A stretch of 64,000 bases of DNA from a virus, in IMG/VR virus record IMGVR_UViG_3300045988_166195, positions 32,001 through 96,000 of that record; one strand, written 5' to 3'. Position numbers and translations under genes: made by a program. The stretch's first letter is position 1; every line of letters begins with the position of its first letter. Under the pieces are notes generated by a model. That model was not told where the DNA came from. It made no database searches and worked only from the letters and a program-made list of their open reading frames with translations. Positions 7,533 through 52,022 of the stretch are shown piece after piece.

Positions 7533-9692
7533 ATGAATGAAGCAAAACTATTTTCCGAGGGTAGCGCGACTGACCTGGTGTGCCGGGGTTGGTCGCGTGA
7601 GCGTGTCATTGATGCCACCGGCATCGATCCTGGCTATCACAACTCTTCGATGAAGACTGAGTTGAAGGGCGTTGATCGTCATACATATAAGATCGAGCAT
7701 GTGCGTCAACGTGTTGCACAGGAGACTGTGCGAGACGTGCTGGAACGCTATGCTGCGTGCGATCTGGATAAAGCAGGTCTGTTGGAGCAGCTTGGGCTGC
7801 ATGACGCGGTGAATCTGATCAAGCTTGCTGATCTGTTCACAGGTCTGGGTCTTGGCGAAGAGTTCCGTGACGCCGATCGTCGGTCTCGTCGTGGTGTCAT
7901 GCGAGCAGGCATGATCGCTCAGCATGGTACAGACAACCCGTTCAAGCTTGATGAGTACCAGGAGAAGGCTGCCCAGACAAGGGAAGATCGTTACGGCGCT
8001 CGGTACACGTTGGCCGAGGGTTCGGTATTTGCTGACGAGGCTCGGAAGAAAGCCAAAACGACTCGTTATTCTCGCGAGAGATATACACGTGTTTTGACCT
8101 CGGATGAGATCGCACAGCGTAGCGCACGTGCGGTAAAAACTTCACGATCGCGTTATGGCGTTGACCATTCCAGTCAAACTCCTGATGCTCGTGCGGCTCA
8201 GAGGCAACGGGCTGAGCAGTATGGGAAGCAATGGGCTGAGAAAGCTCGTCAAACGAGTATCGAAAGGTATGGCTTTCCTTCATGGACTATGCGTGAGGAA
8301 TCTCGTCGAGAGATCTCCAAACGCATGTCAAGCGCACGTGTGCAACAGCGGTCGTTGGCGACGAAGAAACGTAATGCCACATTGGCTACCTTTTCATCAG
8401 AGGACGCGCTTCATGAGCTGCTCGTTGAGTATGCGGATCAGCTCGGTATGACCGTGGTGCGACAGTATCGTGATGAGGAACGTTATCCCTTTGCTGTTGA
8501 TTTTTATATCCCTGAGCGCGATCTGTTCATCGAACTCAATGGTTCGTGGTCGCATGGCGGGCACTGGCATGAATCCGATCGCGAGATGGATCAGAAGACA
8601 GTGCAAACCTGGCGCAAGAAGGGTAAGAAGTCCCAGTATTACCTCAATGCGCTTGGGACGTGGACTGAGCGAGACGTGCGTAAGCGTGAAGCGGCTCGCG
8701 ACGCACAGTTGAATTACGTGACGCTGTGGGATGGCTCTGAGGCTTTGGCCGATGCTCATCTGTGGTTTGCTCTCGGGGCTCCTGATGGCCACGATTGGGA
8801 ACGTGAGTACTCCTGGCTCGATCTACCTGAATCTCTGATCGATCTCAGGGAAGGTTTGGATGAGCAGGCGCAGCAGTGGGCGGATATTGATGTCGCGAAC
8901 GCTGGTTCGAGGCAGATCTCCTGGCTTGCCCGTAGCGGAACGTGGGAGACGTTCTATGCTCGTGAGTTGCAGATGTGGGAAACCGACGAGGTTCATCATC
9001 GTAAGTGGGGCCGTCTGCGTGCACGTCTGCTCGCTAATCGGTTGCATTATCTCGGCAAGCTTCCTGAGTCAGCTCTGGAGGTTGTGCGAGGGCTGGCCAT
9101 CAGCGGTGAGATCCGTTCGTACTCGACGTTCGTCAACACGGCTATGCTGGCTGTTCTCGATCGGTATGAGCCGACGCATATGTATGACCCGTGTAGTGGG
9201 TGGGGTGAGCGTATGCTCACCTGTGCTCAGCGTGGTGTGACGTACACAGGCACAGACATCTCTGAAGCGGTGGTGACGGCTCACCAGAGTCTTATTGACC
9301 GTCTGGGTTTGACGAATGTCAGTGTGACGCTTGGGGACAGCGCTACTCGCGATATGCGAGGTGGCTCGCATGAGATGGTTCTGACCTGCCCACCGTATGG
9401 TGATACGGAGATCTACACTTCTCAGGGTGCTGAGAATCTGGATGACGAGGCGTTCTTGGAATGGTGGAAGCAGGTTGTTTCCATGAGCGTTGCTCCGTCG
9501 ACGCGTGTTTTCGCCTTCCAGATCAGTGAGAAATGGCGCAAGCGTATGTCGGCAGTGGCTCAGAGCGTATTGGGTGAGCAGTGGCACCTGGTAGATGAGA
9601 TTGATGCGTCGGTATCGCGTAATCATTTCCAGCGTGCACGGTCGCGTGAGAAGCATCGTGGTGAAACGATGGTGGTCTTTGAACGACTCTGA
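7533..9692 (+). CDS. Multidomain orphan DNA methyltransferase: RYG-repeat region, DUF559/Vsr-like endonuclease-fold domain and a C-terminal SAM-dependent N6A/N4C-type methyltransferase
   Basis: C-terminus: motif I-like YDPCSGWGERM ... GTDIS, then a catalytic LTCPPYGD (xPPY) about 60 aa later. Middle: PFAVDFYIPERDLFIELNGSWSHGGHWHE resembles the DUF559/Vsr PD-(D/E)xK core (fxVDFylp...liiElDG.yH). N-terminal half: three spaced RYG(A/V/F) repeats (DRYGARYTL, SRYGVDHSSQTP, IERYGFPSW). Confidence 0.55.
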   Translation: MNEAKLFSEGSATDLVCRGWSRERVIDATGIDPGYHNSSMKTELKGVDRHTYKIEHVRQRVAQETVRDVLERYAACDLDKAGLLEQLGLHDAVNLIKLADLFTGLGLGEEFRDADRRSRRGVMRAGMIAQHGTDNPFKLDEYQEKAAQTREDRYGARYTLAEGSVFADEARKKAKTTRYSRERYTRVLTSDEIAQRSARAVKTSRSRYGVDHSSQTPDARAAQRQRAEQYGKQWAEKARQTSIERYGFPSWTMREESRREISKRMSSARVQQRSLATKKRNATLATFSSEDALHELLVEYADQLGMTVVRQYRDEERYPFAVDFYIPERDLFIELNGSWSHGGHWHESDREMDQKTVQTWRKKGKKSQYYLNALGTWTERDVRKREAARDAQLNYVTLWDGSEALADAHLWFALGAPDGHDWEREYSWLDLPESLIDLREGLDEQAQQWADIDVANAGSRQISWLARSGTWETFYARELQMWETDEVHHRKWGRLRARLLANRLHYLGKLPESALEVVRGLAISGEIRSYSTFVNTAMLAVLDRYEPTHMYDPCSGWGERMLTCAQRGVTYTGTDISEAVVTAHQSLIDRLGLTNVSVTLGDSATRDMRGGSHEMVLTCPPYGDTEIYTSQGAENLDDEAFLEWWKQVVSMSVAPSTRVFAFQISEKWRKRMSAVAQSVLGEQWHLVDEIDASVSRNHFQRARSREKHRGETMVVFERL

Positions 9693-9710
9693 TATACTCG
9701 TATACGAACG
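9691..9710 (+). promoter_or_regulatory. Recurrent motif GATATACTCGTATACGAACG, candidate element promoter or operator, about 40 nt upstream of the topoisomerase gene
   Basis: Near-identical copies lie at 33079, 46114 (variant), 47478 and 48429. All are intergenic and upstream of plus-strand genes. The motif contains a TATACT -10-like hexamer. Confidence 0.35.
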
Positions 9711-9749
9711 TTTTCGATAATTTTTCGATCATAGATTTGGAGGACATGT

Positions 9750-11963
9750 ATGACGGTTGGAATTCTCACTGAGAAGCCAAGCGCGGCGCGTAATTTCGCG
9801 AAGGCGCTTGGTGGTCAGACTGGAACCTACAACGGTGAGAACTATGTGATCGCGTTTGCACGCGGTCACCTGTTTGAGCTCAAACAGCCGGTGGATCAGG
9901 TGGATCCGTCGAAGCGTACGCAGTATGCGTCGTGGGTGCTGAGTGATCTGCCGTGGGATGTGAACGATCTTGCTTTCGAGCGAGAGAAGAAGGATGGTGT
10001 GTCGAAACTGCTGTCCGACATCCGCACGGCGTTCCGTTCGTGCGATGAGATTTGTATTGCTACCGACGTTGATCCGTCGGGCGAAGGAGGGCTATTAGCC
10101 TGGGAAATCATCGCTGCCCTCGGACTGAACACAAAGCCGATCTCGCGCATGTATTTCACCGATGAGGCTCCAGCCTCGATCAAGAAGGCGTTTACGTCGC
10201 GTAAGCGTTTGACTTCGATGGAAGATCACGATGAGTACCGCATGGCATGGTTGCGGTCCCGATGGGATTTCCTCTCGATGCAGTGGACCCGTGTCGCATC
10301 CCAGCTTGCTGGACAGCGTACTGTCCTGCGTCAGGGTCGACTCAAGTCGGCCATGACTGTACTCGTGGGTGATCAGCTGAAGGCCCATAAGTCGTGGAAG
10401 AAGGTGCCGTTCTACGAGCCCCGTTTCCGCGATGAGAATGGCGTGATGTACTCGGACCCTGATGCGCAGCGACACGCCAAGGAAAGCGATGTCGATCTGA
10501 GTGGTCTGCATGTATCGAGCGTGACGGTTGATGCCAAGACCATGAAGCGTTCCGGCCCGCCTCGGATGCTGGATCTGGCTGGCCTGTCAGCACTCCTGAG
10601 CGCTAAGGGCGTGAAGGCGGCGGACGTGCTGAAGATCTATCAAAAAATGTACGAAGCCCAAGTCGTCAGCTATCCCCGTACCGAAGACAAGCACGTCACC
10701 AAGGAGCAATTCGCGGAGCTTGTTAGTAATGCTCCTGCAATCGCTCGCGCTGTCGGTATCGATCCAGCTCTGCTGACGCACACTGCTGCCAGGTCGACTC
10801 ACGTCAAGGACTCGGGTGCTCACGGTGCAAACCGTCCTGGTCCGAATGTTCCTCAGTCGCTTGCAGACGTGGAGGCGAAGTACGGCAAGACGGGTGCCAT
10901 GATCTATGAGTTGCTTGCTCGGTCTGCTCTCGCTGTTCTCGCAGAGGACTACGAGTACGAGGCTCAGAAGGGTCACGTCACTGACTTCCCCTCCTACACG
11001 GGTTCGTGCTCGGTGCCGAAGAAGCCGGGTTGGAAGTCTGTTCTTGGTGGCGCATCGATGGCAGACGATGATGACGATGAGAACAACGTGACGGGTCTGG
11101 GTACCCAGGCTCAGCCGTTCGTTCACGAGGGTGTTCCACCGCGCCCTGCGGCCCCCACCGTTAAGTGGCTCATGAAGCAACTGGAGAGGCGAGACGTGGG
11201 CACTGGTGCAACGCGCACCAGCACCTTCGCTGAGGTGTCAAGCTCGAAGGCTCGGTATCCTCTCATGACTGAAACGAGGGGCAAGATTGCTCTCACTGAG
11301 CATGGTGACATGAGCTACCGGCTGTTGCCAGGAACTCATATTGGTGATCTCACGATCACTGAACGAGTGTTCGCTGACATGAAGGCTGTGGCCAAGGGTC
11401 AGAAGAATGCAGACGATGTTCTGGCTGAAGTGGCCGGACTGATCACAGATGATATTGCCGTCATGACGGCGAATGCACAAACAATGCGAAAGGAACTTGG
11501 AATGAGCGAATTTGTCGAGAAGGAATACTTCGAGGGTACGTGGGCCAAGAACGGTCAGCACGTGAAGTTCAACCGTACGTGGAGTGGCCATCGCTTCACC
11601 GATCAGGAGTGCATGGATCTCCTGGCTGGTAAGGACATCGAGATTACTGCCACGTCGGCCAAGACGGGTAACGATTTCTCTGTCGTTGGCGCACTTGGTG
11701 AAAGTGAGTACAAGGGTCGTAAGTTCGTTGGCTTCCAAGCTGATTTTAAGAAGCCCACCGCTGCTGCAAAGAAGGGCGTTGCACCCAAGTCGATGCTTGG
11801 CGTGAAGCTCACTGATGAGCAGCGTGAGAAGATTGAGGCGGGTGAGAAGGTGCTGATCAAGGGCATGAAGTCCAAGAAGACGGGAAAGACCTTCGATGCC
11901 TATTTGTCCCTGGAAGATAAGCCGGATGGGACGCGAGGTATCGCGTTCTCGTTCGACAAGTGA
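9750..11963 (+). CDS. Type IA DNA topoisomerase (Topo III/TraE-like) of the conjugative element
   Basis: TOPRIM region MTVGILTEKPSAARNFAKAL ... EICIATDVDPSGEGGLLAWEI with the DxD acidic motif. The active-site tyrosine context is VVSYPRTEDKHVTKEQF (compare xYxRTD in type IA enzymes). AGGAG Shine-Dalgarno (tttggaggacatgtATG). Size 737 aa. Confidence 0.7.
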   Translation: MTVGILTEKPSAARNFAKALGGQTGTYNGENYVIAFARGHLFELKQPVDQVDPSKRTQYASWVLSDLPWDVNDLAFEREKKDGVSKLLSDIRTAFRSCDEICIATDVDPSGEGGLLAWEIIAALGLNTKPISRMYFTDEAPASIKKAFTSRKRLTSMEDHDEYRMAWLRSRWDFLSMQWTRVASQLAGQRTVLRQGRLKSAMTVLVGDQLKAHKSWKKVPFYEPRFRDENGVMYSDPDAQRHAKESDVDLSGLHVSSVTVDAKTMKRSGPPRMLDLAGLSALLSAKGVKAADVLKIYQKMYEAQVVSYPRTEDKHVTKEQFAELVSNAPAIARAVGIDPALLTHTAARSTHVKDSGAHGANRPGPNVPQSLADVEAKYGKTGAMIYELLARSALAVLAEDYEYEAQKGHVTDFPSYTGSCSVPKKPGWKSVLGGASMADDDDDENNVTGLGTQAQPFVHEGVPPRPAAPTVKWLMKQLERRDVGTGATRTSTFAEVSSSKARYPLMTETRGKIALTEHGDMSYRLLPGTHIGDLTITERVFADMKAVAKGQKNADDVLAEVAGLITDDIAVMTANAQTMRKELGMSEFVEKEYFEGTWAKNGQHVKFNRTWSGHRFTDQECMDLLAGKDIEITATSAKTGNDFSVVGALGESEYKGRKFVGFQADFKKPTAAAKKGVAPKSMLGVKLTDEQREKIEAGEKVLIKGMKSKKTGKTFDAYLSLEDKPDGTRGIAFSFDK

Positions 11964-15207: not shown

Positions 15208-18200
15208 ACAAGAACCATGAAAAGAAAGGAGAGAGTTTGATGCTCACAAGCCGTGTTCGAGCAGTTCGGGGCTTCACCCGTGCGATGTCGTTTGTCGCAG
15301 CTGTGCTCATTGCCGTCTTTGGTCTCACCATGATCGGCGGAAGTGCGTACGCTGACAAGGACAAGGCTGAGAAGTATGACTTCTACACGCTCTCGTCTAA
15401 CGTCACTGCCTACTTCTCCGATGCGACTAAGCCTGGTGAAGGCGATGGTCTCTCGGCGGATGAGGGCTGGACGACGATCGCTCAGAATGCCAGTGAGGGT
15501 GGAAACTTGCTGGGTTACGGAGACGATGATGTGTCGAGCTTCTCCGGCTGGCTCGTTTCTAAGGCCACGGGTTCATCGAACACGGTGGGTTATGACTCGT
15601 TGAAAGTTCGCGACAACGATTCGAGCAGTGCAAACTCCGCGTATAGCGGCGTTCTCGCATATGCGCAGTATGGCTCGCTGTTGAACGCGTTGGGTCTTGA
15701 TTCCACGTCGACGGGTCTGGGGCTTCACTTCCAGAACATGGCGTTTGGTTCCATCATGGCCCTGCTGTATCTGCTCGCTGGTGGTATCGATACGATCTTC
15801 TCGGCTGTGATCTGGCTGCTGGAGACGCTTAACCCGTTCAAGCTCTTCTTCTCTGCGATCTCTGCATCGAGCACGGCAATGGCCAACGGTATGACCGGTG
15901 GACAGGGTGTGCCGGTGTGGATGCAGAGCCTCGATACCTGGTTCAGCGGCTGGTATCAGGCGCTTGTGAACCTGTCATGGACTGTGCTCATTCCGCTCTT
16001 CCTCTTTGTGTTCATCATCTCGTCTCTCATGTGGAAGAAGGGCAATGCTCTCGGTGGCTTGAAGAAGCTTGTCATCCGCGTGCTCTTCCTCGGTGTGGGT
16101 CTGCCTCTTATCGGTTCGATGTACACGGCATCGTTGGGTGTCATGAAGGACGCGACAGCGGGTGCTGGTATGGGTGCGACGCGCGTTGTGATCTCCACGT
16201 TTGTCGACTTCGAGAACTGGGCGAAGAAGGACCGCCTTGCTGTGCCGGACAATGCCACGCTTCAGTGGGATTCGTCTAAGCAGGCTCCGACCGGCGCATC
16301 TGTGAACAAGCTGCGTCAGACGACTGTGGCGATCAACAAGCTTGCGAACTCGGGTGCATTCTCGTCTGTGTCGGATATTGATGTGTCTGGCCTTGGCTCT
16401 ATCTCCACGGAGGCTGCGAAGGCAGATACGACATCGAGCGGCGGTCTGAAGGATTTCACCTATGTCGCTGCCATGGAGATGCTTCTGCGCTACACGACTG
16501 CTCAGTCGTACCAGGCATCTGACTTTGATACGGCCATTAAGGGTCGTATCAGCCAGCAAGCATCGAGCGGCCAGGAGCAGGTCAAGAGCTGTGCGACGAC
16601 CTGGTTCAATGTCCAGGCCGATGGTTCGACCAAGGCTGATGGCAAGGGTTGTTCTGCGACCAAGGCATCGGATAATCCGGTGCTGAAGGTTCGTGAGGGA
16701 TCTGGTCTCCAGGCGTCCGGTGAAAGCGGCACCATTACGTTCACGACGAGCGGCGATAAGTACGCTGGTGACTGGGTGATGCTCGGTGAGAACTTCAACG
16801 GTGCGAACTTGTCTGCGCTGTCCATGTATAACTACTTGAACACGACGTTCGACAAGAACTCGGCAACCACCTACTCGTCGAGCAACGCGGTGTCGTCTGC
16901 TACTCGTGAGTACCACAACTCTGTGAACCTGGTTGGTTCTGCTGGCGTGAGCTGGTTGTACTGGGTGAACGGCGCTGTGACGCTGCTGTGCTTCATCGTG
17001 CTTGGCCTTGGTTACGCATTCGGTATGTTCACCGGTGCGATCAAGAACTCGATGCACATCATCACGGCGGTTCCGTTCGCAACGCTGGGTTCTATGGCAG
17101 GTATCGCGAAGGTGGTTATCTACACCTTTACGATGATTACCGAGATCATCGCAACCATGTTCATCTACCGTCTCGTCCAGGAGATCATTCTGTCGATTCC
17201 GAGCATCTTCGAGGGCGGCTTGGAACATATGTTCAACTCGATGGGTGGTTTCGGTGTCTACCTGAAGAACAGTGGTAACGTCACGCTCTTTACGTCGCTG
17301 GTGTCCACTGTGCTGTTGATTCTTCTGACGTGGAAGATGATGCACTTCCGTGGTGCCTTCGTGAAGGGTCTCAATGAGGCTGTCACGAAGATTGTCGATA
17401 AGTTCCTGGACACGAATGTCGCGCCTCCCGCTGGTGGCGGCAAGCTGATGCCAGCTCTGGCCGGTGGTGTTGGCGCAGGCGTTGGCTCTGCTGCTGCTAA
17501 CCGTCTGATGAGCGGTCGTGGTGGTCTGGGCTCTGGCTCGGGACGCGGCGGTGCATCGAGCGGTCTCATGGCTGGCTCTGGCGGTATTCAGGATGGAAAC
17601 GGCGGTGTCTCGGGTATGGGCGGTGGATCGATGCTATCCATCAACGGTACCGATGGCCCTGGCCCGGATGAGATCGGTCCCGGTGCATCCGGTGGTGATC
17701 CCAACGCTCCTGGTGGCAGTGGCGGCGGTTTGCTGCTCAGCGACGGGTCGGGCGGTGTGAACGTCGACAACAGCACAAGCAACGACAACTCCAGCGCACT
17801 GATGACATCCGAGTCGGATCGTCAGCTCGCAAGTGAAGTTGATGCTCGTGGTGGTTTGTCTGAGCCAGCTCAGCTTGAGGCTGGTCCGCAGGCTGATGCA
17901 GCTGCATCAAGCAAGGTCGCCAACAACGCCGATGACGCTATGAGTGAGACGGCAGGGTCGATTCAGTCGACGATGGACGCTCATAACAAGGCTGATAAGG
18001 CGCGTGTTGACCAGGCAACGTCCGGTGTGAAGGCTGTGTGGCACGGTGGTAAGGCCGCTGCTAAGGCTTACTCCGGTGATGTCGCAGGTGCTGCTCAGGA
18101 TGGCCAGAAGGCCCTGGGTGATGTCCAGAGCGCTCAGACCAAGGGTCAGGAGGCGAAGGCTCACCGTCAGTCGGCTGAGGCACCGCGTCCTGTTCAGCCA

Positions 18201-22697: not shown

Positions 22698-22765
22698 TGT
22701 GGTATGATTGATTATGTTGATACACGAGTGAAATCACGTCAGTGGAAAAGAGATAGAGAAAGGGA

Positions 22766-29168: not shown

Positions 29169-29259
29169 TTCCTGTTTCTGCTCTGTTTCTATAGAAGTCA
29201 CTAACTATGCTAGAATGACTGGTACACCAGCCTAATCGATTGAAAGATGGAGGAAAGAT

Positions 29260-33033: not shown

Positions 33034-33078
33034 TCATATCGAATCTGCTTGTATGCGAGCACATTTGGCACAAAGTGT

Positions 33079-33098
33079 GATACCCTCGTATACGAGTG
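33079..33098 (+). promoter_or_regulatory. Copy of the recurrent GATAcCCTCGTATACGAGTG motif upstream of the 33184 gene
   Basis: Same core (CTCGTATACGAG) as at 9691. Intergenic, about 90 nt upstream of the start codon. Confidence 0.35.
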
Positions 33099-33183
33099 CA
33101 AACACAGTGTGCTTGCCGGTACCTGCAAACATTCCCAATGATGCAGGTACCGGCTCACATACAACCGAATCGATCGAAAGGAT

Positions 33184-35535: not shown

Positions 35536-35640
35536 TCTCTGCGCTTCTGTTTCTGATATGATTAGGTTGGTGAATCAACCAAATCGAAAAGATGCAAGAA
35601 AGACGTAAGAGACAGAAGAGAAAGGTGAAAGGTGGTGCAT

Positions 35641-39758: not shown

Positions 39759-40400
39759 CTATTGCTGAAGCTTGATTCTCCCGGAGCAGTACGGGCAACC
39801 AGTCTTTTTGGTGGTGCGGCTATACGGTGTTGCCTTCCACGTATGAGAGGGGTTTATGGGGCACTGCCATAGCACGGACACGTCCGATCCTGGTTTAAGA
39901 GTGGTAGCGAGAGATTGATCGATGAGTTGTTCGGCCAAGTCTGGATGTGTAGTTGCCAAGTCGCTTTGACCAGAGACGGCACGGCGACCTGAGCATTGAG
40001 GGCAGCGCGTTCCTTGGCGTGCGACGTTGCTGAGCGGAGCAGTCCAGTGATCGTGCATAGGGTTACCGCACCAGAACTCAACTTTCTTGTTGGAAGAGCC
40101 GGTGAGCTTTGTTTGTAGGCTCGTATCGACCATGAGAGCAGCAGCTTCGGGATGAGTGGTGGCAACGTCGTTGACACCGGGGATCACAGTCTTGCCATTA
40201 CATACGCTGCATCCGGTGGGGTTTTTCGCGTTCGTACGGTTCATAGGGCTGGCCCACCACACGTGACGAGAGTCAACGGGGCAGCGCCATTGGACCTTCT
40301 TGTCTGAACCGCGAGCGATAGATCTTAGGGATTGGTCCACAAGCTGGTCAGCAAGGGCGGGGTTGAACTGCTCAAGGGTCTGAGATGGTTTTCTTGGCAT
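39759..40400 (-). CDS. Triple zinc-ribbon repeat protein (DUF4379-type probable zinc-ribbon domains)
   Basis: Three repeats of about 65 aa with the pattern LAxQLxDQSL...GSxxxVxWxCPxxxxHxWxAxPxxRT.....GCxxCxG.....GxNDxATTHP. 12 Cys/His ligand positions are conserved. GGAG-like Shine-Dalgarno (aggagaaccgccATG on the minus strand). Confidence 0.55.
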   Translation of the reverse strand: MPRKPSQTLEQFNPALADQLVDQSLRSIARGSDKKVQWRCPVDSRHVWWASPMNRTNAKNPTGCSVCNGKTVIPGVNDVATTHPEAAALMVDTSLQTKLTGSSNKKVEFWCGNPMHDHWTAPLSNVARQGTRCPQCSGRRAVSGQSDLATTHPDLAEQLIDQSLATTLKPGSDVSVLWQCPINPSHTWKATPYSRTTKKTGCPYCSGRIKLQQ

Positions 40401-40580
40401 GGCGGTTCTCCTGATTCTATTAGGGGTTGTTTGTATTATTCAGTGTATCATAAATAGTCGGTTATATGTATGCGGGTTCCCTTGTGTTTCCAGTCGAAAT
40501 GCGGGTTTTTGTCGGGTAGAATGGAGGGCGTAATACCCGATCGATCCAGTGGATCGAAACTCCAGGAAGGAGAATGCGTT

Positions 40581-43500: not shown

Positions 43501-46031
43501 TTGTTGATCGCAATGCCGATCTGTCTCCTGATGAGATTGAAGAGTTGCATGGATCGACTGACATGATGACGCTTTTCCGGGAGAATCCGGGTTTGGATGT
43601 CGTCATGGCACCGTTCAGCGCTGTGTCTCGTTTCAACGGCGGCTCGGCACGTGAGGCGATGCGGCAAACGTCTGCGCTTCATCTGCCAAACGGCACAACC
43701 GTTGAGGCAGGTATTGGTCAGGTGTCGTTTATCGGCACGCATATGACCGTGGATGCGAAGACGGCTGCATACGATGAAGCTGCGATCCGAGCTGGACAAG
43801 GTCGTAAGGCGTCGTCTCAGCTTGCATGGGCCTTGCAGTCCCAGGGCTGCGATAAGGTGTTGGGGCAGATGTATGGTGGCAACCTGCAAGCTCTTGCGCA
43901 GCTGCGTGAAATGGCTCTGGTGTGCGGTTTGGACATCGAGCCTGATGGCACCTTGCGCGATGGTCATGATGATCTTGCTGTTGGTGGGCAGCGCCGTCTC
44001 ATCGAGATGGGCGATGTGCCGCTGACTGAACGTGGATCGTTCGACGTGCGTCGCGTTCGTAACGATTTCGCGTCGCTGATTGGTGACGCTGGTGGTGACA
44101 TGGAGATTCCGTTCCCGCTGACGATGCCAACGGGCGCTCGTACGCCTCATGCAACAGACACCACCTGGCGTGTGCCGGTGCTGAGTTCGCATCTGCGATC
44201 GGGCCAGGATCTGGATGACGGTACGTCGACGGTCCATGATTACACGTATCGTTACCTTGCGATCCGTGAATGGTCGCTGCGCTACAAGCATGCGGCTGAT
44301 CGCGCTGCGTCTGGTGAGCTGACGGGTAAGGAGCTTTCCGATGCTCGTCGAACGATGGCTGAGGCTATGCACCGTGCGCAGACGGCTTACGATGGCATTG
44401 CGCAAGACATCATGCGTCGCCGGTTTACCGGCAAGCGCAATGTCTTCAAGGAAGGTCTCATGGCTTCGCGTCTGCCGCACTCGGCTACCGCTGTGTGGAC
44501 GGGTGATCCTCGCTTGGACATCGACCAGGTTGGTGTTGGCCCGGAGCTGGCGAAGAAACTACACTTGCGCGATGGTGACTACGCGCTTGTGTGGCGTGAT
44601 CCTGTTCTGCGTGATGCGGGTGTCCGTTACATGCGTGTTGCGATCGATGACCGTCTCACGGGTGTGAGTGTGAATCCAAACATGGTCAAGTGCTTCGACG
44701 GCGACTTCGACGGTGACTCTGTGGCTGTTGTGAAGCTGGGTGATGGTCCGGCACATGAGCAAGCGCTGGAGCGTCTGACTGTCGAGGCTAACCTCATCGA
44801 TCTCGGTCAGAGCATGGACGACGAGGGTCGTTACCCTCTTGCGATGCACAACGCGCTCGATGTGAAGGTGTCGCAGCACTACGACTCTCGTCATGCGGAT
44901 GCGATGGATGAGGTTCATCAGCGCGCCAACGATGCGTACTACGATCTGACTGAAGGGGATGCTACTCGTGAGCAGTTCCTGGAGGCGGGTCGTGATGTCG
45001 TTGATGCAGCGTCGTATATGTACCGTGATGCGCTTCAGCATCAGTACGGTGAGGCTGTGTTGTCGTTTGGTTCCGTTCAGGAGCACATGAAGTCTGTGGC
45101 GGCTGCGTGTATTGAGACGGGAGCTAAAGGCTCGCCTAAGAAGATGCTGGATTACGCTCGGTACATCGGCTATGACCCTGAGAACCAGGTGGATCTGGTG
45201 ACCACGTGTGTGACTCGTGGGGAACAGCAGGGCACCATGTTTGCGACGGCTGTGAAGTCGTTTGGTACCGGTGTTGCCGGTACGTTCTCGCAGCGTGGTG
45301 TGCGAGCTCTTCGTAACGATGAGCTCAAGGCTGTGTTGGAGCTGACCTACCCGGTGACGCAGAGTATTTTGCAGGCTAAGCACGACCCTGTGGATGCTCG
45401 TCATCGCTATGAGTTGCTGATGGGTCCGGCGCGAAGCTTGTGGCGTGGTCAGATGATTGCACAGGATGCCAACGGTGTGTGGAACACTGTGACGGATGAC
45501 GATCATAAGCCGGTTCAGGCTACCAAGGATCAGTGGGTCGCTGTGTTCTCGCAGTTCTATGGCGATGATGGTCTGGGTGTGGCTGTGAACAGTGACAACA
45601 TCACGAAGGTTGCAAATGCGCTCAGCGATAGCAACGGGGTGATGGTGAATCTGGAGGACGAGAAGGTCATTGAACAGCTCGCTTCTCCGATGGATCGTCT
45701 GGCTTACGGCGGTGACTTCACCACGATGCAAGCTCTGGCTGAGACTCGGGCAAACTTGTTCGAGGGTCGGTGGAACGTTACGTTTGCACCAGCTCGTGTG
45801 CGTGAGGTGCTGGAGGCTGATGTGGAGACGCAAGCTGAGGCACCGGTGATCGCCATGGAAGACACTGTGGCTCGCGTGGACCGTGATGAGAAGATCGGTC
45901 GACGTAAGTCGACATCGTGGGCTGTCCCAGTTCGCTCGAACACGGGTGCCAGCGCAGCTGAGCGTTACGGTTTGACGACACAAGACAACAGTGAGACAGA
46001 CAAGTCTGTCGATGATGGTTTCGAGCTGTAA
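40581..46031 (+). CDS. Giant single-chain RNA polymerase-like protein: RpoB-like module followed by RpoC-like module (YonO-like mobile-element RNAP family), ending in ...KSVDDGFEL
   Basis: AGGAAGGAGAA Shine-Dalgarno then ATG 40581 (MQTRNAG). Beta-like module: AFMTAGGWTMEDSIVVS (compare RpoB AFMPWNGYNFEDSILVS), GDKISDMHGNKGVISLIV (RpoB GDKMAGRHGNKGVISKI), DVVMAPFSAVSRFNGGSAREAM (RpoB [20 protein letters not shown]), SSQLAWALQSQG (RpoB GEMEVWALEAYG). Beta-prime-like module: LVWRDPVLRDAGVRYMRV (RpoC LLNRAPTLHRLGIQAF), VKCFDGDFDGDSVAVV (RpoC NADFDGDQMAVH, the Mg-binding aspartates), TGAKGSPKKMLDYARYIGY (RpoC SGARGS...RGLM). The E. coli sequences are from memory. The antisense ORFs inside it are shadows. 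Confidence 0.75.
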   Translation: MQTRNAGLRRYMYEHMIARTINRTSEITKTPILVSQGRRLRDLMEERLNEQGRSFNDGDLPVTDALDAIQSIMEEHVPGYKPLFQPADTSSKGYKVLYEEFRNMVGLNGSAGAAGPRLPISPYDPRWGSRRTVKQAGTSILYVLDGDIAAYADGKPSNIEKATTSELTLYRLTDEGKAKEAGRALSLDDVSGLTELMGRMSTAEYNEVRQWVLDGARNPETGRYNARQFMSTDALARSRAVLDMLAEEGIPYTIEKDLRPGQIRARLTGTNMTVRLTDTRDKEQWVGRVYDNGATLYFSTTARRDNKQVAYTPTVDEVCDLVRVALGRPVERKDGKGLVGRVGERQTSKGKTVQESYLSTGTLTSAYKDMPGMNGEQIVIRRQMKERSASSRFFADTPEGREQASGFITGAVHSARHNVIEQLDVDGLIQQFRDHEDAAREGTYIPMLSGDPDLAAVGRAYWDVLRGAETTLLKPEATRAEYAEATGLLDDMDQESDLSGVHDMLAGSVAYTGTPEERVRAHLRDLLDTQIGIDEPIDSDDFVFDPVRVARYMTSEHGQWRNNDDLVAAMRSVGMPQEKIVGESFYSNTFRDRLITFDESTALPMETVEDEFTQSMLQVVSDTLESCAVTPGSIRVDANGVVEWTGSIMRSQTGKEEPVSGTIGQIFARGENGEIITRFNSGNDLMIVPGFDARVVAQKPGENKSLEERTRLIGYEQQMSDAIRYRVQADVLSGRSRVGEPASLNSVYRRLSDTRHRADHYERALEEGMDRKILDAILATEARRVRYPNALRDGSTIDADFRASRAREQGIGGDPANDTTMDPWVLTGGRNMSLLSEEADGYFDPIMTSGGVNQGVTRYLVSGAQVNPDGSIVRSDKNDRAPLMLTEQAQLMSYDPFDRQQMTTSNLMNASSVTKPVGTAFMTAGGWTMEDSIVVSADFAKQYRVRGTDGQMRDLIVGDKISDMHGNKGVISLIVDRNADLSPDEIEELHGSTDMMTLFRENPGLDVVMAPFSAVSRFNGGSAREAMRQTSALHLPNGTTVEAGIGQVSFIGTHMTVDAKTAAYDEAAIRAGQGRKASSQLAWALQSQGCDKVLGQMYGGNLQALAQLREMALVCGLDIEPDGTLRDGHDDLAVGGQRRLIEMGDVPLTERGSFDVRRVRNDFASLIGDAGGDMEIPFPLTMPTGARTPHATDTTWRVPVLSSHLRSGQDLDDGTSTVHDYTYRYLAIREWSLRYKHAADRAASGELTGKELSDARRTMAEAMHRAQTAYDGIAQDIMRRRFTGKRNVFKEGLMASRLPHSATAVWTGDPRLDIDQVGVGPELAKKLHLRDGDYALVWRDPVLRDAGVRYMRVAIDDRLTGVSVNPNMVKCFDGDFDGDSVAVVKLGDGPAHEQALERLTVEANLIDLGQSMDDEGRYPLAMHNALDVKVSQHYDSRHADAMDEVHQRANDAYYDLTEGDATREQFLEAGRDVVDAASYMYRDALQHQYGEAVLSFGSVQEHMKSVAAACIETGAKGSPKKMLDYARYIGYDPENQVDLVTTCVTRGEQQGTMFATAVKSFGTGVAGTFSQRGVRALRNDELKAVLELTYPVTQSILQAKHDPVDARHRYELLMGPARSLWRGQMIAQDANGVWNTVTDDDHKPVQATKDQWVAVFSQFYGDDGLGVAVNSDNITKVANALSDSNGVMVNLEDEKVIEQLASPMDRLAYGGDFTTMQALAETRANLFEGRWNVTFAPARVREVLEADVETQAEAPVIAMEDTVARVDRDEKIGRRKSTSWAVPVRSNTGASAAERYGLTTQDNSETDKSVDDGFEL

Positions 46032-46047
46032 GACTCGGTGAGAGGGG

Positions 46048-46078
46048 CGGGTTGTTTCGCGTGGTTGAAGCAACCCGC
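46048..46078 (+). terminator. Weak hairpin after the RNAP-like gene
   Basis: GCGGGTTG-tttcgcgtggttgaag-CAACCCGC, then TTCCTCTTC. Confidence 0.3.
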
Positions 46079-46113: not shown

Positions 46114-46145
46114 GCGATAGTACAATATACTGATATATGAGTCGA
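46114..46145 (+). promoter_or_regulatory. Variant copy of the recurrent motif (GCGATAGTACAATATACTGATATATGAGTCG) upstream of DDGFEL-tail paralog A
   Basis: Two mismatches to ATATACTGGTATACGAGTCG at 48431. About 30 nt upstream of ATG 46176. Confidence 0.3.
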
Positions 46146-46175: not shown

Positions 46176-47387
46176 ATGTCTGTGTCAGCTATGTCAGAGT
46201 GGATGGCGAAGTTCCCCCAGGATTGGGTCGAGATTCGTTATGGTCTTGAGGCTCATGAGTGGGCTGGTTCGCTTTCTGATCGAGTGATGGCGATTATCAA
46301 TAAGAATGACCCCGCACGAGAAGATCGGGTTAATGCATTGCTGCGTGACAATGCTGTGCTTCTTGAAAGAAGGTTTCAGGGTCACAGGCGTCCAGGACCT
46401 GACGAGGACTTTATTGATTATGCCGAGTTCCGTGATGCCATTTCTCATGTTGTAGAAAATGGTATTTCTATTAACGATGAAACCTATTCGCAAATCCATT
46501 ATGTGGATAGTACATGTGTGCGTTCTCCGACAAAGGCGCTGCTGCGTCCGCATCATGAGGTATATCCCAATGCCAACGTACAGGCTTTTTATCGTCGGTC
46601 TTTGCGCGAGGGGAAGCCTTCAAAACCTTCGGATGGATATATCAAAAATGTGTATGGTCTGAGAGGCGATGAATGGACGGGCACATCAGTCGATGTGGGG
46701 GCGATCATCAATGATCGCTCATCGAGGATAGCATCGATAAGGGATCAGCGTGTCAATGATTTCTTGCGTGATCAGGTGGCTGTTTTCGAGATGGGCATGG
46801 AGAAGCTTGAGGCCAAGAACGCAACATATAACGATATGGGAGTAGGTGCTCGTGCTTATGGTTATGATCTGCGTGATGCGATTGAGGAAGCCGTAGAGAA
46901 TGGTATTTTGATTAATGCTGAAACGATGAACGCTATCAAGAGGGTAGAGCATGATTACGTGACTCCATATGTCGGGGAATCGTTGGCGAACCAATATGAC
47001 AAGTTGTATGAGCTTAATGAAGCACGGAAACATCATCATGAGATTGCGCCATCGTTTGCATCATCACATGAAAAGAAGTCTGAGCCAGCGATTCATTCGG
47101 TCATTACCGGTGGAAGTGGTCATGGTAAAGAACAGGTTCAGCTTGCTAACGTTTTGAGCGGACGGATGCCCTCGATGGGTCGCGATACAGACGGCCAGTC
47201 TTTGGCACCGTCTACCCCGTCTCAGGGTTCTCGTCAGGGGTCTATTGGGGCAGCGCTTCCCGGTAGTTCCATTACTGTTGGTCGTCGGACGCCTCGTGTG
47301 TCGCCCACTGCTGGTACGGCTCGTCGTATGGGTATTTCTGAGTCTCAGGTACAGACCCCAAGCGTCGATGACGGTTTCGAGCTGTGA
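46176..47387 (+). CDS. DDGFEL-tail repeat protein, paralog A (404 aa)
   Basis: Shine-Dalgarno GAAAGGAAAT. Contains RYGLEAHEWAGSLSDRVMAIINKNDPAREDRVNALLRDNA and a second copy NVYGLRGDEWTGTSVDVGAIINDRSSRIASIRDQRVNDFLRDQV. Then ILINAETMNAIKRVEHDYV, a Ser/Pro/Gly-rich disordered tail, and ...GSIGAALPGSSITVGRRTPRVSPTAGTARRMGISESQVQTPSVDDGFEL. Slightly lower GC than the neighbours. Confidence 0.55.
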   Translation: MSVSAMSEWMAKFPQDWVEIRYGLEAHEWAGSLSDRVMAIINKNDPAREDRVNALLRDNAVLLERRFQGHRRPGPDEDFIDYAEFRDAISHVVENGISINDETYSQIHYVDSTCVRSPTKALLRPHHEVYPNANVQAFYRRSLREGKPSKPSDGYIKNVYGLRGDEWTGTSVDVGAIINDRSSRIASIRDQRVNDFLRDQVAVFEMGMEKLEAKNATYNDMGVGARAYGYDLRDAIEEAVENGILINAETMNAIKRVEHDYVTPYVGESLANQYDKLYELNEARKHHHEIAPSFASSHEKKSEPAIHSVITGGSGHGKEQVQLANVLSGRMPSMGRDTDGQSLAPSTPSQGSRQGSIGAALPGSSITVGRRTPRVSPTAGTARRMGISESQVQTPSVDDGFEL

Positions 47388-47477
47388 TCGCCATGTGATC
47401 ATGGGTTGACACCATGAAGAAGCAGGTCTCGCCTTCGGGTGGGGCCTGCTTCTTTGTCTGTATACGTTGCAATGGTG

Positions 47478-47499
47478 CGATATACTGGTATACGAGCCA
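47478..47499 (+). promoter_or_regulatory. Recurrent motif GCGATATACTGGTATACGAGCC upstream of paralog B
   Basis: Part of a roughly 40-nt block (TACGTTGCAATGGTGCGATATACTGGTATACGAG) nearly identical to the one at 48415-48450. Confidence 0.4.
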
Positions 47500-47531
47500 A
47501 ACACGTGGCGATGATGGAAAGGAAGGGTGTT

Positions 47532-48344
47532 ATGACGCTTTATTACGATCAGGAAATCAAGGAGTATACCGATGCCGGGATCAGGCGATACAAAGGTCTT
47601 GATCCACATGAAGAGCTGGATGCACCAACCGAGCGGTATGGTCTTGATCCACATGAGTGGACAGGAACATTGGCCGATAAGGTGACAGCGATTATCGGTA
47701 AAAATACGCCCGAGAAGGAAACGCATGTGAATGCGTTGTTGCGCGATGCGGCAAAATCATTTATGAAGAATGCCAAATATGCGGAAATGAATGCCCATAA
47801 TGATGAAACTACCTTTAAGAAGGTAATGTCTGTCAACGGTGATGATTTGCGTGCTGCTATGTCCGAAGCGTCCTTGGGCGGCATTCTTATTAACGATGAA
47901 GCGATGGATGCTATCAAACGTGTGGAAAAGCGTTATCTTTCATATTGGAGTTTTGATTTCGGTTTTGATTCTCTGACGCATGCATACGATGAGCTGTATA
48001 AACTTAATGATGCGCGAGCTCATTTCCGTGAGAGTGCGCAAGTGATGCGAGGTGCTGCGAATACCCCAGCGATTTCAAATCCAGAGTTTGATCGTTTCGC
48101 CCCGCCTCAGGGTTCACGTGTGACGACGGTTCCGCCGCCTGTGCGGTCTGCGCCCTCTATCCCGTCTGCTCTTTCTATGTCCGCTGTGTCCACTCAGCGA
48201 ACTGGTTCTATCCAGGCTGTGCTTCCAGGCAGTGGTATCAAGGTGAGTCGAGCGGCACCTCATGTTCCGCAGACTGCCCGTCGTATGGGTGTTGTTGAGT
48301 CACAGGTGCAGACTCCGAATGTTGATGACGGGTTCGAGTTGTGA
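47532..48344 (+). CDS. DDGFEL-tail repeat protein, paralog B (270 aa)
   Basis: Shine-Dalgarno AAAGGAAGGG then ATG (MTLYYDQEIKEY). RYGLDPHEWTGTLADKVTAIIGKNTPEKETHVNALLRDAA. ILINDEAMDAIKRVEKRYL. Tail ...GSIQAVLPGSGIKVSRAAPHVPQTARRMGVVESQVQTPNVDDGFEL. Confidence 0.55.
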   Translation: MTLYYDQEIKEYTDAGIRRYKGLDPHEELDAPTERYGLDPHEWTGTLADKVTAIIGKNTPEKETHVNALLRDAAKSFMKNAKYAEMNAHNDETTFKKVMSVNGDDLRAAMSEASLGGILINDEAMDAIKRVEKRYLSYWSFDFGFDSLTHAYDELYKLNDARAHFRESAQVMRGAANTPAISNPEFDRFAPPQGSRVTTVPPPVRSAPSIPSALSMSAVSTQRTGSIQAVLPGSGIKVSRAAPHVPQTARRMGVVESQVQTPNVDDGFEL

Positions 48345-48428
48345 CGCTGACGTGATTATGTGATGGGGTAGGTCTTGCTTGAAAGCGGGGCCTACTTCAT
48401 CGTTTTGCCATGTTATCGTTGCAATAGT

Positions 48429-48450
48429 GCGATATACTGGTATACGAGTC
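48429..48450 (+). promoter_or_regulatory. Recurrent motif GCGATATACTGGTATACGAGTC upstream of paralog C
   Basis: Identical core to 47478. About 30 nt upstream of ATG 48480. Confidence 0.4.
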
Positions 48451-48479
48451 GAATGCAACTAAATGAAAGGAAGATGGTC

Positions 48480-49808
48480 ATGTCGACGATATGGTATGAA
48501 GGCCCCACCGATGGCAACATCGAGGGGCGTTACGGTCTCGATTCGCACGAGTGGGTGGGGTCGCTGTCCGATAGGGTGGCGACGATCATTGACAAGGATG
48601 ATCCTTGGAAGGAAACTCATGTGAATGCGCTCTTGCGTGATGGCGTGGAGTTCTATGCGCAGAAGTCGCAGGATCATCCAGAATTGAGTGATGATGATCA
48701 GATGCGCGATGCTATCTCTTATGTGGCGCATAGCGGTGTTCTCATCGATGATGAGACTCTGTTGGCTCTTACGGATGCGGATGACAAGTACGTCATCCCG
48801 TTTGGTGCAGAGTCTTTGATGTACGAATACAACAAGGTGCATCAGCCTGATTACGGACGGATTTATCAGCGTCAGCGTGATGCTGCGCAGTTGCCGTACG
48901 CGGAGGCAACAGACGAAGAGATCAAGGAGCACTATGGCCTTGATCCACATGAGTGGAAAGGGAGTCTTGCCGATAAGGTGATGGCGATTGTTAACAAGAA
49001 TACGCTTGACAAGGAAACGCATGTGAATGCGCTTCTACGTGATGGTGCACGGCTGTTCGCTCAGAATATGGAAGCTCAACCGGTATCGGGTGTGAGTGAA
49101 GATGAGATGAGGTACGCGGTGGAGTCTGGTGGCGATGAACTACGCGCTGCCATCTCTGACGCATCGTGGGCTGGTGTTCTCATCAACGATGAAGCGATGG
49201 AAGCCATCAAGCATGTGGAGAAGGAGTACATCACTGAGTTCGGTGGAGACTCTCTGACGCATGCGTATGATCAGATGCGTAAGCTGAACGATGCACGCGC
49301 TCATTATCGTGAGTCTGCGAAGGAGATGCGTGGCTCTGCGCCTGCTGCGCCTGCTGCGCCTGTTACCCAGGCACCTTCGAGCTTTGATCGTTTCGCCCCG
49401 CCTCAGGGTGCTCGTGTGACGACTGTTCCGTCGCCTGTGCGCACTGTTGGGTCTGCTCGGTCTACTCAGGCAGCTCAGTCTGCACTGTCTGTGCCTCCTA
49501 TTCCGCAACCTCCGAAGACGCCGGGATCCCAGGTTCGCACAGGTGGTCCTGTGCGGGTGGGTAATGTCGCCAAGGACTGGCTGGCTGCGAATGGTCGTGA
49601 CGAGAAGGGTCGGCCTCTTGCGTCTACATCTACGCCGTCTACGCCTCAGGTTCCGGCTCAGCGATCGGGTTCGATCCAGGCTTCGCTTCCTGGTAGCGGT
49701 GTCACCGTGGGTCGATCGACGCCGCGTGTGCCACCCACTGCCCATCGTATGGGTATCCCTGAGCCCCAGGCGCAAACCCCAAGCGTTGATGACGGCTTCG
49801 AGCTGTGA
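48480..49808 (+). CDS. DDGFEL-tail repeat protein, paralog C (442 aa), with two internal copies of the HEW/ETHVNALLRD module
   Basis: Shine-Dalgarno AAAGGAAGATGG then ATG (MSTIWYEG). Module copies RYGLDSHEWVGSLSDRVATIIDKDDPWKETHVNALLRDGV and HYGLDPHEWKGSLADKVMAIVNKNTLDKETHVNALLRDGA. VLINDEAMEAIKHVEKEYI. Pro/Ser-rich linker. Tail ...GSIQASLPGSGVTVGRSTPRVPPTAHRMGIPEPQAQTPSVDDGFEL. Confidence 0.55.
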   Translation: MSTIWYEGPTDGNIEGRYGLDSHEWVGSLSDRVATIIDKDDPWKETHVNALLRDGVEFYAQKSQDHPELSDDDQMRDAISYVAHSGVLIDDETLLALTDADDKYVIPFGAESLMYEYNKVHQPDYGRIYQRQRDAAQLPYAEATDEEIKEHYGLDPHEWKGSLADKVMAIVNKNTLDKETHVNALLRDGARLFAQNMEAQPVSGVSEDEMRYAVESGGDELRAAISDASWAGVLINDEAMEAIKHVEKEYITEFGGDSLTHAYDQMRKLNDARAHYRESAKEMRGSAPAAPAAPVTQAPSSFDRFAPPQGARVTTVPSPVRTVGSARSTQAAQSALSVPPIPQPPKTPGSQVRTGGPVRVGNVAKDWLAANGRDEKGRPLASTSTPSTPQVPAQRSGSIQASLPGSGVTVGRSTPRVPPTAHRMGIPEPQAQTPSVDDGFEL

Positions 49809-51524: not shown

Positions 51525-51857
51525 ATGTTGGGTTTCCCAAAGGATGACGACACGATCGGCGGTCTGTTCGGTGTCAACGAAGAGGATCGTCACGCATGGG
51601 CCAAGGAGCGTCAGATGAGGCTGGAGCGTCAGCAGATGCAAAAGCCTGGTCTGGCGAAGAAGGCAACGATGGCTGCTTACGAAATCGCTGCTGCTGGCAT
51701 CACTTCGCAGATGCGTGCGGCGTACATCGAAGAGGCCCGTGGCACGATGGCGAAAGAGACGACCACGACGACTCGTAGTCAGTCTCGAAATATTGATCCC
51801 GAACTCGAAGAGATTCGACGGGAAGCACCGTCTGGTGGCTACGAATTCGTTGGCTGA
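51525..51857 (+). CDS. Small hypothetical protein (110 aa)
   Basis: Shine-Dalgarno AAAGGAGTGACCA then ATG. Its start overlaps the stop of the upstream gene (ATGAAAGGAGTGACCAATG). Charged, helical composition. Confidence 0.4.
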   Translation: MLGFPKDDDTIGGLFGVNEEDRHAWAKERQMRLERQQMQKPGLAKKATMAAYEIAAAGITSQMRAAYIEEARGTMAKETTTTTRSQSRNIDPELEEIRREAPSGGYEFVG

Positions 51858-51871
51858 TGTGTCGCTACGCT

Positions 51872-51908
51872 GATATATCCCCAGGGGTTCATCCCCTGGG
51901 GATATATT
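51872..51908 (+). terminator. Perfect palindromic hairpin
   Basis: GATATATCCCCAGGGG-ttcat-CCCCTGGGGATATAT, a 16-bp stem immediately after the stop at 51857. Confidence 0.5.
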
Positions 51909-52022
51909 TATGTATCGGTCGGTTAAGCATCGGTGTGTTCCGATATGTTAGACTGATACACGAACATAATCAGAAAGCGGCTATGTGCCGTTACACGTGG
52001 GGAAAGGATGAGAGGTTGGATC

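Follow-up and report, generated by a model that had tools for sequence, protein, structure and literature searches.

The stretch of DNA considered here, a window of 64,000 nucleotides (nt) spanning positions 32,001 to 96,000 of the IMG/VR virus record IMGVR_UViG_3300045988_166195, is a conjugative element in which the plus strand carries all genes between 5.1 and 52.4 kb. Its products include a MobL relaxase, a giant VirD4-type coupling protein (type IV coupling protein, T4CP), a Toprim topoisomerase and a lysozyme, together with a ClpB-like ATPase, an HU-like protein, an Arc-like ribbon-helix-helix (RHH) protein and an RNA polymerase (RNAP) of 1853 amino acids (aa). A preliminary description of this DNA drew attention to a short motif that recurs upstream of several genes and proposed that it is a dedicated promoter for the element's own RNAP, as in T7. 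This raises the question of which polymerase reads the motif, and what the conserved sequence beyond the promoter hexamer is for. Judging from the sequence, we consider it slightly better than an even chance that the motif represents extended -10 promoters of the host sigma-A that are co-regulated through a shared, operator-like box of 12 bp.

The recurrence of the motif is real, and it marks the transfer-gene promoters of the conjugative element. A search of both strands with the 18-mer GATATACTsGTATACGAG (GATATACTSGTATACGAG), allowing up to three mismatches, recovered five matches, all on the plus strand (9691, 33079, 46124, 47479 and 48431), against 0.06 expected from 100 shuffles. All six sites cited in the preliminary description are present where it placed them, the weak variant ahead of the HU-like gene being at 51942-51965 (box part 51953-51964), and in our own gene map all of them fall, as it had claimed, in the non-coding 8.3% of the window. 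The copies ahead of the genes for paralogs A, B and C are intergenic because the starts of three open reading frames, which had been placed too far upstream in the program-made list, were corrected to about 46176, 47532 and 48480, each with a ribosome-binding site (RBS). After this correction the distance from the end of the motif to the start codon is 41 nt for the topoisomerase gene, about 96 nt for a gene coding for a coiled-coil protein, 34, 35 and 31 nt for paralogs A, B and C, and 43 nt for the HU-like gene, so that the 18-mer copies lie about 31-96 nt upstream of the start codon.

The right half of the motif falls within a 12-bp box, CTsrTAyAysAG, which was used for a second scan of both strands of the window, with a chance level of about 1.9. 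Eight of its 12 matches lie within the non-coding 8.3% and are oriented with the gene that follows, comprising the six known copies and two further ones at 7453 and 29219. The four matches in coding DNA (9588, 31144 on the minus strand, 60616 and 63884) fit the chance level. Copies overlooked in that first reading are at 7447-7464 and 29211-29230, along with a second box at 33048-33059 and degenerate versions at 22713-22728 and 5081-5099. The copies are:

5081-5099, plus strand: promoter of the Arc-like RHH gene (true start about 5152), TG-T-TATACT with a degenerate box CTTAGTTATCAG
7446-7464, plus strand: copy before the DUF7487 gene (gene 7533), TG-G-TATGCT with box CTGGTTTACCAG (7453-7464)
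9690-9708, plus strand: topoisomerase-gene copy, TG-A-TATACT (-10 at 9693-9698) overlapping box CTCGTATACGAA (9697-9708), ATG at 9750
22713-22728, plus strand: degenerate copy before gene 22766, TATGTT with TTGATACACGAG; a stronger TGGTATGAT is at 22700-22708
29208-29230, plus strand: copy before the ClpB-like, intein-containing gene (gene 29260), TG-C-TAGAAT (29211-29216), GA, box CTGGTACACCAG (29219-29230)
33048-33059, plus strand: second, upstream box of the coiled-coil gene, CTTGTATGCGAG (CTCGTATGCGAG in relatives), 37 bp upstream of the proximal box
33078-33096, plus strand: coiled-coil-gene copy, TG-A-TACCCT (-10 at 33081-33086) overlapping the perfect 12-bp palindrome CTCGTATACGAG (33085-33096)
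46124-46141, plus strand: paralog A copy (true start 46176), TATACT (46126-46131) with box CTGATATATGAG (46130-46141)
47470-47496, plus strand: paralog B copy (true start 47532), block CGTTGCAATGGTGCGA-TATACT (47481-47486) with box CTGGTATACGAG (47485-47496)
48422-48448, plus strand: paralog C copy (true start 48480), CGTTGCAATAGTGCGA-TATACT (48433-48438) with box CTGGTATACGAG (48437-48448)
51946-51964, plus strand: variant copy before the HU-like gene, TG-T-TAGACT (-10 at 51949-51954) with box CTGATACACGAA (51953-51964)

A, B and C are true paralogs (36-49% identity), and the copies of B and C sit in a near-identical block of about 35 nt, for which reason these two count as one event and not as independent occurrences. 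The whole recurrence might on these grounds be taken as a by-product of the duplication of the paralogs with their promoters, augmented by chance matches. However, independent copies precede the unrelated topoisomerase, coiled-coil, HU-like, DUF7487 and ClpB-like genes, the chance expectation is that given above, and the motif persists in orthologous promoters, despite diverged flanks, at protein identities of 44-86%. We regard this explanation as already refuted, and assign it practically no probability.

The left half of the motif, (T)GnTAnnCT, reads as the extended -10 element (TGnTAnnCT) of an actinobacterial sigma-A promoter. A reading of all intergenic regions showed that most plus-strand genes are separate units, each consisting of a hairpin terminator, a TGnTAnnAT sequence and a short leader with an RBS. 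Promoters of this type that lack the box are found upstream of 7533, 13081, 18719, 22766, 29260 and 35632, and the left halves of the motif copies (TGATATACT, TGATACCCT, TGTTAGACT and TGGTATGCT) are the same extended -10 of the element with a terminal CT. All eight intergenic copies in the window have a TAnnnT hexamer with T1, A2 and T6, either in phase with the box or 2 nt upstream of it. The TGn extension is present at 7446, 9690, 29208, 33078, 51946 and 5081, only G-14 is found at 47479 and 48431, and the copy at 46124 has neither, having instead a -35-like TTGATA at a spacing of 17 bp that was picked up by a sigma-70 scanner. As this scanner demands a -35 it misses most of these extended -10 promoters.

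Among relatives the changes in the hexamer are confined to positions 3 and 4, with T1, A2 and T6 fixed: the coiled-coil class shows TACCCT, TATCCT, TATGCT and TACACT, and the HU class TAGACT, TATACT, TAAACT and TAGGCT, the rare exceptions being CAGACT (Nocardiopsis) and TGGACT (Actinomadura). Genome-wide mapping in Streptomyces and Mycobacterium has located a TANNNT -10 at thousands of start sites (PMC8780764, PMC6448022). The left half can be read as a host promoter because the variation of the hexamer matches this consensus, and only sigma region 2 would be expected to impose such a pattern. The invariance of the C at position 5 follows from the overlap of the box with the hexamer. In its invariant T1, A2 and T6, its variable middle and the TG or G 1-2 nt upstream, the motif resembles the sigma-A/HrdB promoters of actinobacteria (-10 TANNNT, a weak -35 BTGACN and an optional TG or G); the -35 is absent or weak in the window, and distant coiled-coil promoters carry one at 18 bp (TTGCCT-N18-TAGGAT). 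Unlike in ordinary promoters of this kind, conservation runs 10 nt past the hexamer. The "candidate promoter" of the preliminary description is in these respects well borne out, as each copy lies between a terminator or the preceding gene and an RBS with its start codon, contains TAnnnT, usually with the TG or G extension, and is kept in relatives against diverged flanks. The further proposal of a promoter dedicated to the element's polymerase fares less well at this point, in that the left half looks like an ordinary sigma-A -10 that is also found in the box-less promoters.

The box is roughly dyad-symmetric, with CTCGTATACGAG as its ideal form, and the symmetry amounts to 12/12 positions at 33085, 11/12 at 9697, and 10/12 at 46130, 47485, 48437, 7453 and 29219. 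Across 74 non-redundant instances from all lineages, the start of the box relative to the end of the -10 is -2 in 33, +1 in 21, +2 in one and +4/5 in 16, and a nearby TAnnnT hexamer is present in 71 and absent from three. In the window, the box of the ClpB-like gene begins 2 nt past the -10 and does not overlap with it, and the upstream box at 33048-33059, which is kept in close relatives, has no adjoining TAnnnT hexamer. As its offset slides by up to 7 nt and the copy at 33048 has no -10, the box is a separable module and not a fixed RNAP contact. The conserved "GTATACGAG extension" of the -10 in the preliminary description is accordingly better described as a separable box that slides relative to the -10. 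In its placement the box behaves like an operator over the -10/+1 region.

It is conceivable that no separate factor is involved, and that the conserved downstream sequence is itself core promoter (discriminator, start region and initial transcribed sequence), read by the host RNAP and tuning promoter strength or open-complex stability, with GATAGACTGG / GATATACTGG representing a near-consensus strong actinobacterial promoter. Strong actinobacterial promoters, such as those of Corynebacterium glutamicum and the mycobacterial rrn genes, typically have TANNNT followed by a G-rich discriminator, and in the in-phase copies the G or GG after the hexamer and the purine-rich "GAG/AAG" 7-10 nt downstream sit at the expected positions of the discriminator and +1. 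However, elsewhere the box is 1, 2 or 4-5 nt farther from the -10, and once it occurs without a -10, so that there are no fixed RNAP contacts. Furthermore, the box-less promoters of the element have unrelated downstream sequences. We therefore think that a purely core-promoter role is unlikely.

The conservation of the box was followed in relatives retrieved with the polymerase, namely 66 loci from species-representative genomes and 54 from metagenomes, each with the sequence 10 kb to either side of the polymerase gene. Polymerase identities are 84-97% in Actinomyces-type contigs, 61-65% in two contigs and 37% in a low-GC lineage. A group at about 44% includes Streptomyces, Arthrobacter, Pseudarthrobacter, Kribbella, Nocardiopsis, Promicromonospora and others, and plasmid searches added Streptomyces, Rhodococcus and Gordonia plasmids (39-44%) as well as distant Staphylococcus and Lactococcus plasmids. 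Among 56 close relatives, 95 matches to the motif pattern lie on the plus strand as opposed to two on the minus strand, and column-wise alignments of four promoter classes from close relatives show that the motif is kept while the flanks have diverged, with both boxes kept in the coiled-coil class. Deeper still, orthologous promoters of the group at about 44% retain a box right after the -10:

HU promoter: cGATAGACTGGTTTCTAAG, box in phase
coiled-coil promoter: TTGCCT-N18-TAGGAT-A-CTCATAAACCAG
ClpB-like promoter: TGATAGACT-TTCGA-CTGATCTATCAG
post-lysozyme promoter: TGATAGAGT-TGTC-TTGATATTCGAG

The HU-like promoter of the window is orthologous to the GATAGACTGGTTTCTAAG promoter of the distant relatives, and the degenerate copy before gene 22766 to TTGATATTCGAG in a Streptomyces plasmid. 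In polymerase-bearing Gordonia and Rhodococcus plasmids, in the metagenomic lineage of 37% identity and in one Staphylococcus plasmid no box was seen; these relatives have only plain GnTAnnnT or TGTTATAAT promoters, the region upstream of the polymerase gene included. The presence of an HU-like gene was considered as a predictor of the box and proved uninformative, such genes being nearly universal, box-less lineages included.

Some further resemblances were seen in these relatives. The ideal form CTCGTATACGAG occurs exactly in four Streptomyces loci (L016 at 19425, L019 at 19424, L020 at 19320 and L066 at 19283), between a small divergent gene pair whose first product looks antitoxin-like by eye only. 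Similarly, a Streptomyces plasmid (L125) has CACGTATACGAG at about 4230-4290, on the minus strand of the record, where it forms part of the leader of its first transfer operon and adjoins a divergent gene annotated as a helix-turn-helix (HTH) regulator. These identities may be a coincidence or a shared operator, and they were not used as evidence, given that about 0.1-0.2 are expected by chance and that this HTH protein is without a homolog in the window. In the Staphylococcus plasmid NZ_CP150776.1 two promoters (L123, about 2060-2090 and about 11720-11750), one of them that of the polymerase gene, share TGTTAAAAT-w-TAGTTG; the RHH promoter of the window reads TGTTATACT-TAGTTA, a likeness that is probably coincidental.

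The proposal that the motif serves the element's own polymerase has to be weighed against what this polymerase is:

40470-46031, plus strand: fused beta::beta'-like RNAP gene, 1853 aa, with Rpb2_6, Rpb1_2 and DFDGD

The identification of this protein as a polymerase in the preliminary description holds, as both double-psi beta-barrel signatures and the DFDGD motif are present, with Rpb2_6 (aa 987-1014) and Rpb1_2 (aa 1365-1420) on one polypeptide. Its best sequence match among solved structures is gp96 of the Thermus phage P23-45 (8h2m/8h2n, E 4e-7, over aa 1353-1424), and its "FDGDFDGD" aligns to that of P23-45 gp96 and of Rpb1. In the P23-45 protein an RNAP is joined to the tail tape measure protein, and the enzyme is described as the virion RNAP (vRNAP) for transcription of the pre-early genes (PMC10770324). 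An enigmatic beta::beta' fusion has also been noted in C. glutamicum NCgl1702 (PMC2919709), and the polymerase of the element is of the same fusion kind.

The motif, or the box within it, might thus be a promoter or initiation signal of this polymerase, T7-like or P23-45-like and possibly lying beside a sigma-A promoter in a dual arrangement. The likeness to the promoters of the T7 class and of the P23-45 vRNAP (AT-rich) is that an element with its own polymerase reuses an AT-rich motif upstream of co-oriented genes (PMC10770324, PMC2919709). The polymerase is real and, from its sequence, looks catalytically intact, and polymerases with two barrels and no sigma use short conserved motifs, the P23-45 enzyme being the best match in PDB (PMC10770324). 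The motif is strictly co-oriented with the genes, the upstream region of the polymerase gene itself has no match to the box in the 12-mer scan of the window, and the conservation of the box across host genera of very different GC content would be in keeping with an element-borne reader. A comparable arrangement is that of the yeast killer plasmids, in which upstream conserved sequence (UCS) promoters go together with an Rpb2::Rpb1 fusion polymerase.

On the other hand, all copies but one have a bona fide sigma-A -10 that evolves as such. Unlike the T7 and P23-45 promoters, the motif here has a functional-looking host -10, is partly palindromic and slides relative to the -10 (-2 to +5): a box with a palindromic ideal form and a variable offset is not a fixed directional unit, as a promoter should be. 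In P23-45 the case for a dedicated promoter is the strict co-occurrence of motif and polymerase (PMC10770324), whereas here the Gordonia, Rhodococcus, Staphylococcus and 37%-identity relatives have the polymerase with plain sigma-A promoters and no box, although specificity could have diverged beyond recognition. For another polymerase, YonO, the promoter is stated to be unknown (PMC5467207). The motif-driven genes also end in canonical hairpin-plus-U terminators, in contrast to the P23-45 vRNAP, which uses an unusual terminator motif (PMC10770324). Folding placed four motif copies (paralogs A, B and C and the HU-like gene) directly after strong intrinsic terminators with stems of 13-19 bp:

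46047-46078, plus strand: terminator following the RNAP gene and immediately preceding the paralog A motif; 13-bp stem, U-rich tail, folding energy (dG) -37 kcal/mol, z -5.1
47418-47453, plus strand: terminator following paralog A and immediately preceding the paralog B motif; 16-bp stem, CUUCUUU tail, z -6.0
48361-48402, plus strand: terminator following paralog B and immediately preceding the paralog C motif; 19-bp stem, UCGUUUU tail, z -7.2
51872-51908, plus strand: terminator upstream of the HU promoter; 16-bp stem, AUUUAUGU tail, z -5.6

Taken together, a promoter dedicated to the fused polymerase appears quite unlikely.

The association of the polymerase with the conjugation apparatus is nevertheless close. 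The fused polymerase (40470-46031) and the giant T4CP (35632-39687) match essentially the same 12-13 of the 72,556 plasmids in PLSDB, from Streptomyces, Rhodococcus, Gordonia, Staphylococcus and Lactococcus, and no plasmid in PLSDB bears this T4CP without the polymerase. Since the matches of the two proteins are the same records, the polymerase is a core, and not an accessory, component of a lineage of conjugation systems in Actinomycetota and Bacillota, which suggests a role in DNA transfer or establishment, e.g. priming or early transcription. As no relative in PLSDB has the conjugation system without the polymerase, the co-occurrence of motif and polymerase is testable in one direction only. 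One could imagine stacked promoters ahead of each transfer or establishment gene, with the sigma-A holoenzyme acting on the established double-stranded DNA and the box serving the element's polymerase. The latter might enter a new recipient along with the transferred strand, or act on this strand as it arrives, as a conjugative counterpart of the injected virion RNAPs. The strict co-occurrence of the polymerase with one type of T4CP, its nearest solved relative being an injected phage polymerase and the conservation of the box across host genera would all fit such an arrangement, and we hold it to be just as doubtful as a dedicated promoter. We found no description in the literature of this polymerase in conjugation, nor of this system. 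A gene annotated as "DNA-directed RNA polymerase subunit alpha" was seen in the Streptomyces plasmid NZ_CP109461.1 (L125 7402-8427, positions 96401-97426 of the record), at a distance of a few kb from the left end of the transfer module, which is disrupted.

The box could alternatively act in RNA, as a 5'-leader element that forms a small hairpin or is recognized by a protein or RNase in the mRNAs. CUCG-UAUA-CGAG could form a 4-bp hairpin, and in the Streptomyces-type HU promoters (L007, L009, L016, L019, L023 and others, at about 17,760-17,790) the interior of the box and a stretch downstream of it make up the 5' and 3' arms of an inverted repeat, GGTTTC-N5-GAAACC, with the variants GGTTCCC/GGGACC and GGCTTCC/GGAACC. 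Sliding the partner columns lowers the paired fraction of this repeat from 87% to 34-61%. However, at the commonest offset of -2 the predicted start lies inside the box, leaving only the 3' end of the box to be transcribed, other promoter classes do not retain the putative pairings, covariation does not exceed shuffled controls, and a search of Rfam gave no family match. An RNA-level function is hence very improbable; the hairpin tried for the Streptomyces HU promoters was rejected for want of compensatory change above shuffles, and the repeat could instead be a longer dyad operator in the Streptomyces lineage. Another candidate, a stem in RNA or single-stranded DNA that buries the -10 hexamer of the ClpB-like promoters (TAGACTT...AAGTCT in some and TAGGATT...AATCCT in others), would have undermined the sigma-A reading. 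RNAalifold gave no supported structure for it and the count of pairs equals that of shuffles. Independently of these, the 5' leader of the coiled-coil gene contains a strong hairpin downstream of the box (33107-33162), with a 13-bp GC-rich stem GCCGGTACCTGCA...TGCAGGTACCGGC (z -6) that is kept in close relatives. As it has no U-tail it is not a terminator, and it may be a regulatory leader structure.

Under the explanation that we favour, namely sigma-A promoters that share an operator, the host RNAP-sigma-A holoenzyme would start each plus-strand unit of the transfer module at (T)GnTAnnCT, the layout of a unit being terminator, promoter, a leader of about 35-95 nt with an RBS, and gene. The box, which covers the -10 and the predicted start or lies just past them, would be the operator of a sequence-specific DNA-binding protein, and a protein bound at -10/+1 would be expected to repress the transfer and establishment genes together. 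The predicted regulon comprises the genes for the DUF7487 protein, the topoisomerase, the ClpB-like ATPase, the coiled-coil protein, the three paralogs and the HU-like protein, and probably the RHH gene. In this scheme the transcription start, the repression and the identity of the binding protein are what we infer, and apart from a host factor the window offers two candidates for the latter:

5152-5501, plus strand: Arc/CopG-like RHH protein, a putative box binder
52008-52373, plus strand: HU/IHF-fold DNA-binding protein (Bac_DNA_binding, HU-HIG), a second putative box binder

The Arc-like RHH protein is a marginal domain match (E 2e-4) whose own promoter has a degenerate box, and the promoter of the HU-like gene has the most widely conserved box. 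The preliminary description had allowed that the motif might turn out to be the binding site of the RHH or HU protein and not a promoter. Its promoter character stands, and it is probably an operator as well.

Precedents exist for such an arrangement. KorA of RP4/RK2 recognizes a 12-bp symmetric operator (OA) at seven promoters, with perfect and imperfect classes (PMC2665229), and on these IncP-1 plasmids this site, present in the core promoter region of about 7-8 promoters, co-regulates backbone functions (PMC2665229). The element resembles this system in having eight intergenic boxes, of which one is a perfect palindrome and the rest match at 10-11 of 12 positions. It differs in the unrelated sequence of the site, in the host (an actinobacterium as opposed to a proteobacterium) and in the decay of the symmetry in distant lineages, and neither a homolog of KorA nor a clear HTH repressor was found in the window. 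A second parallel is offered by Omega, the RHH global repressor of the inc18 plasmids, and by the operators of Arc, Mnt and CopG, in which short repeated sites overlap the core promoters of several operons. The element likewise encodes a small RHH protein at the head of the module, and the motif can be read as two 8-bp units, GATATACT and GGTATACG. Unlike Omega-type sites, this tandem-unit reading fails in distant relatives, and the RHH assignment is marginal.

Several observations weigh against the shared-operator explanation. The dyad symmetry is clear only in the Actinomyces-type copies, and when all lineages are taken together the complementarity of the inner pairs does not exceed what the column frequencies predict, the left half of the box (kACTsrT) being better conserved than the right half. 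Within one distant (Streptomyces) genome the 3-4 boxes differ from one another and yet match their own orthologs, which is not usual for the sites of one regulator. A clear HTH repressor domain is found in none of the genes of the window, the match of the RHH protein being marginal, and HU-like genes are also found in lineages where no box was seen. Finally, the window copies are without a properly spaced -35, though extended -10 promoters need none.

Other genes of the element show features of their own. The ClpB-like double-AAA+ ATPase (29260-33033) is interrupted at about aa 835-920 by a LAGLIDADG/Hom_end intein-like insert, and for its distant orthologs the annotation reads no more than "AAA family ATPase". 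Paralogs A, B and C (46176-49808) contain an internal duplication and a recurring N-terminal "RYGL(D/E)xHEW" and have no Pfam match; BLAST also aligns aa 21-142 of A with aa 35-168 of B, and the number of copies varies among relatives. Divergent from the polymerase gene is a minus-strand gene (39759-40400) coding for three DUF4379 treble-clef zinc-finger repeats, which has its own extended -10, TGATACACT, in the intergenic region shared with the polymerase gene. The left end of the window carries three minus-strand Endonuclea_NS_2 paralogs (1521-2315, 2330-3121 and 6632-7400), a SLOG/YAcAr protein (3912-4607) and a protein with the SocA/Panacea antitoxin domain (4480-5073), a block that may represent defence or anti-defence cargo.

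If our reading is correct, the motif would define the regulon and the transcription-unit map of a widespread and uncharacterised family of actinobacterial conjugative elements, typified by a MobL relaxase, a giant T4CP, a ClpB-like ATPase and a fused RNA polymerase, and hosted by oral Actinomyces, Streptomyces, Arthrobacter, Kribbella, Nocardiopsis and others. The box would provide a 12-bp handle for finding the switch that turns transfer on. Should the transfer genes indeed be on host promoters, then the polymerase probably has another job, e.g. priming or early expression on the transferred strand, and what that job is becomes a sharper and more interesting question than the motif itself.

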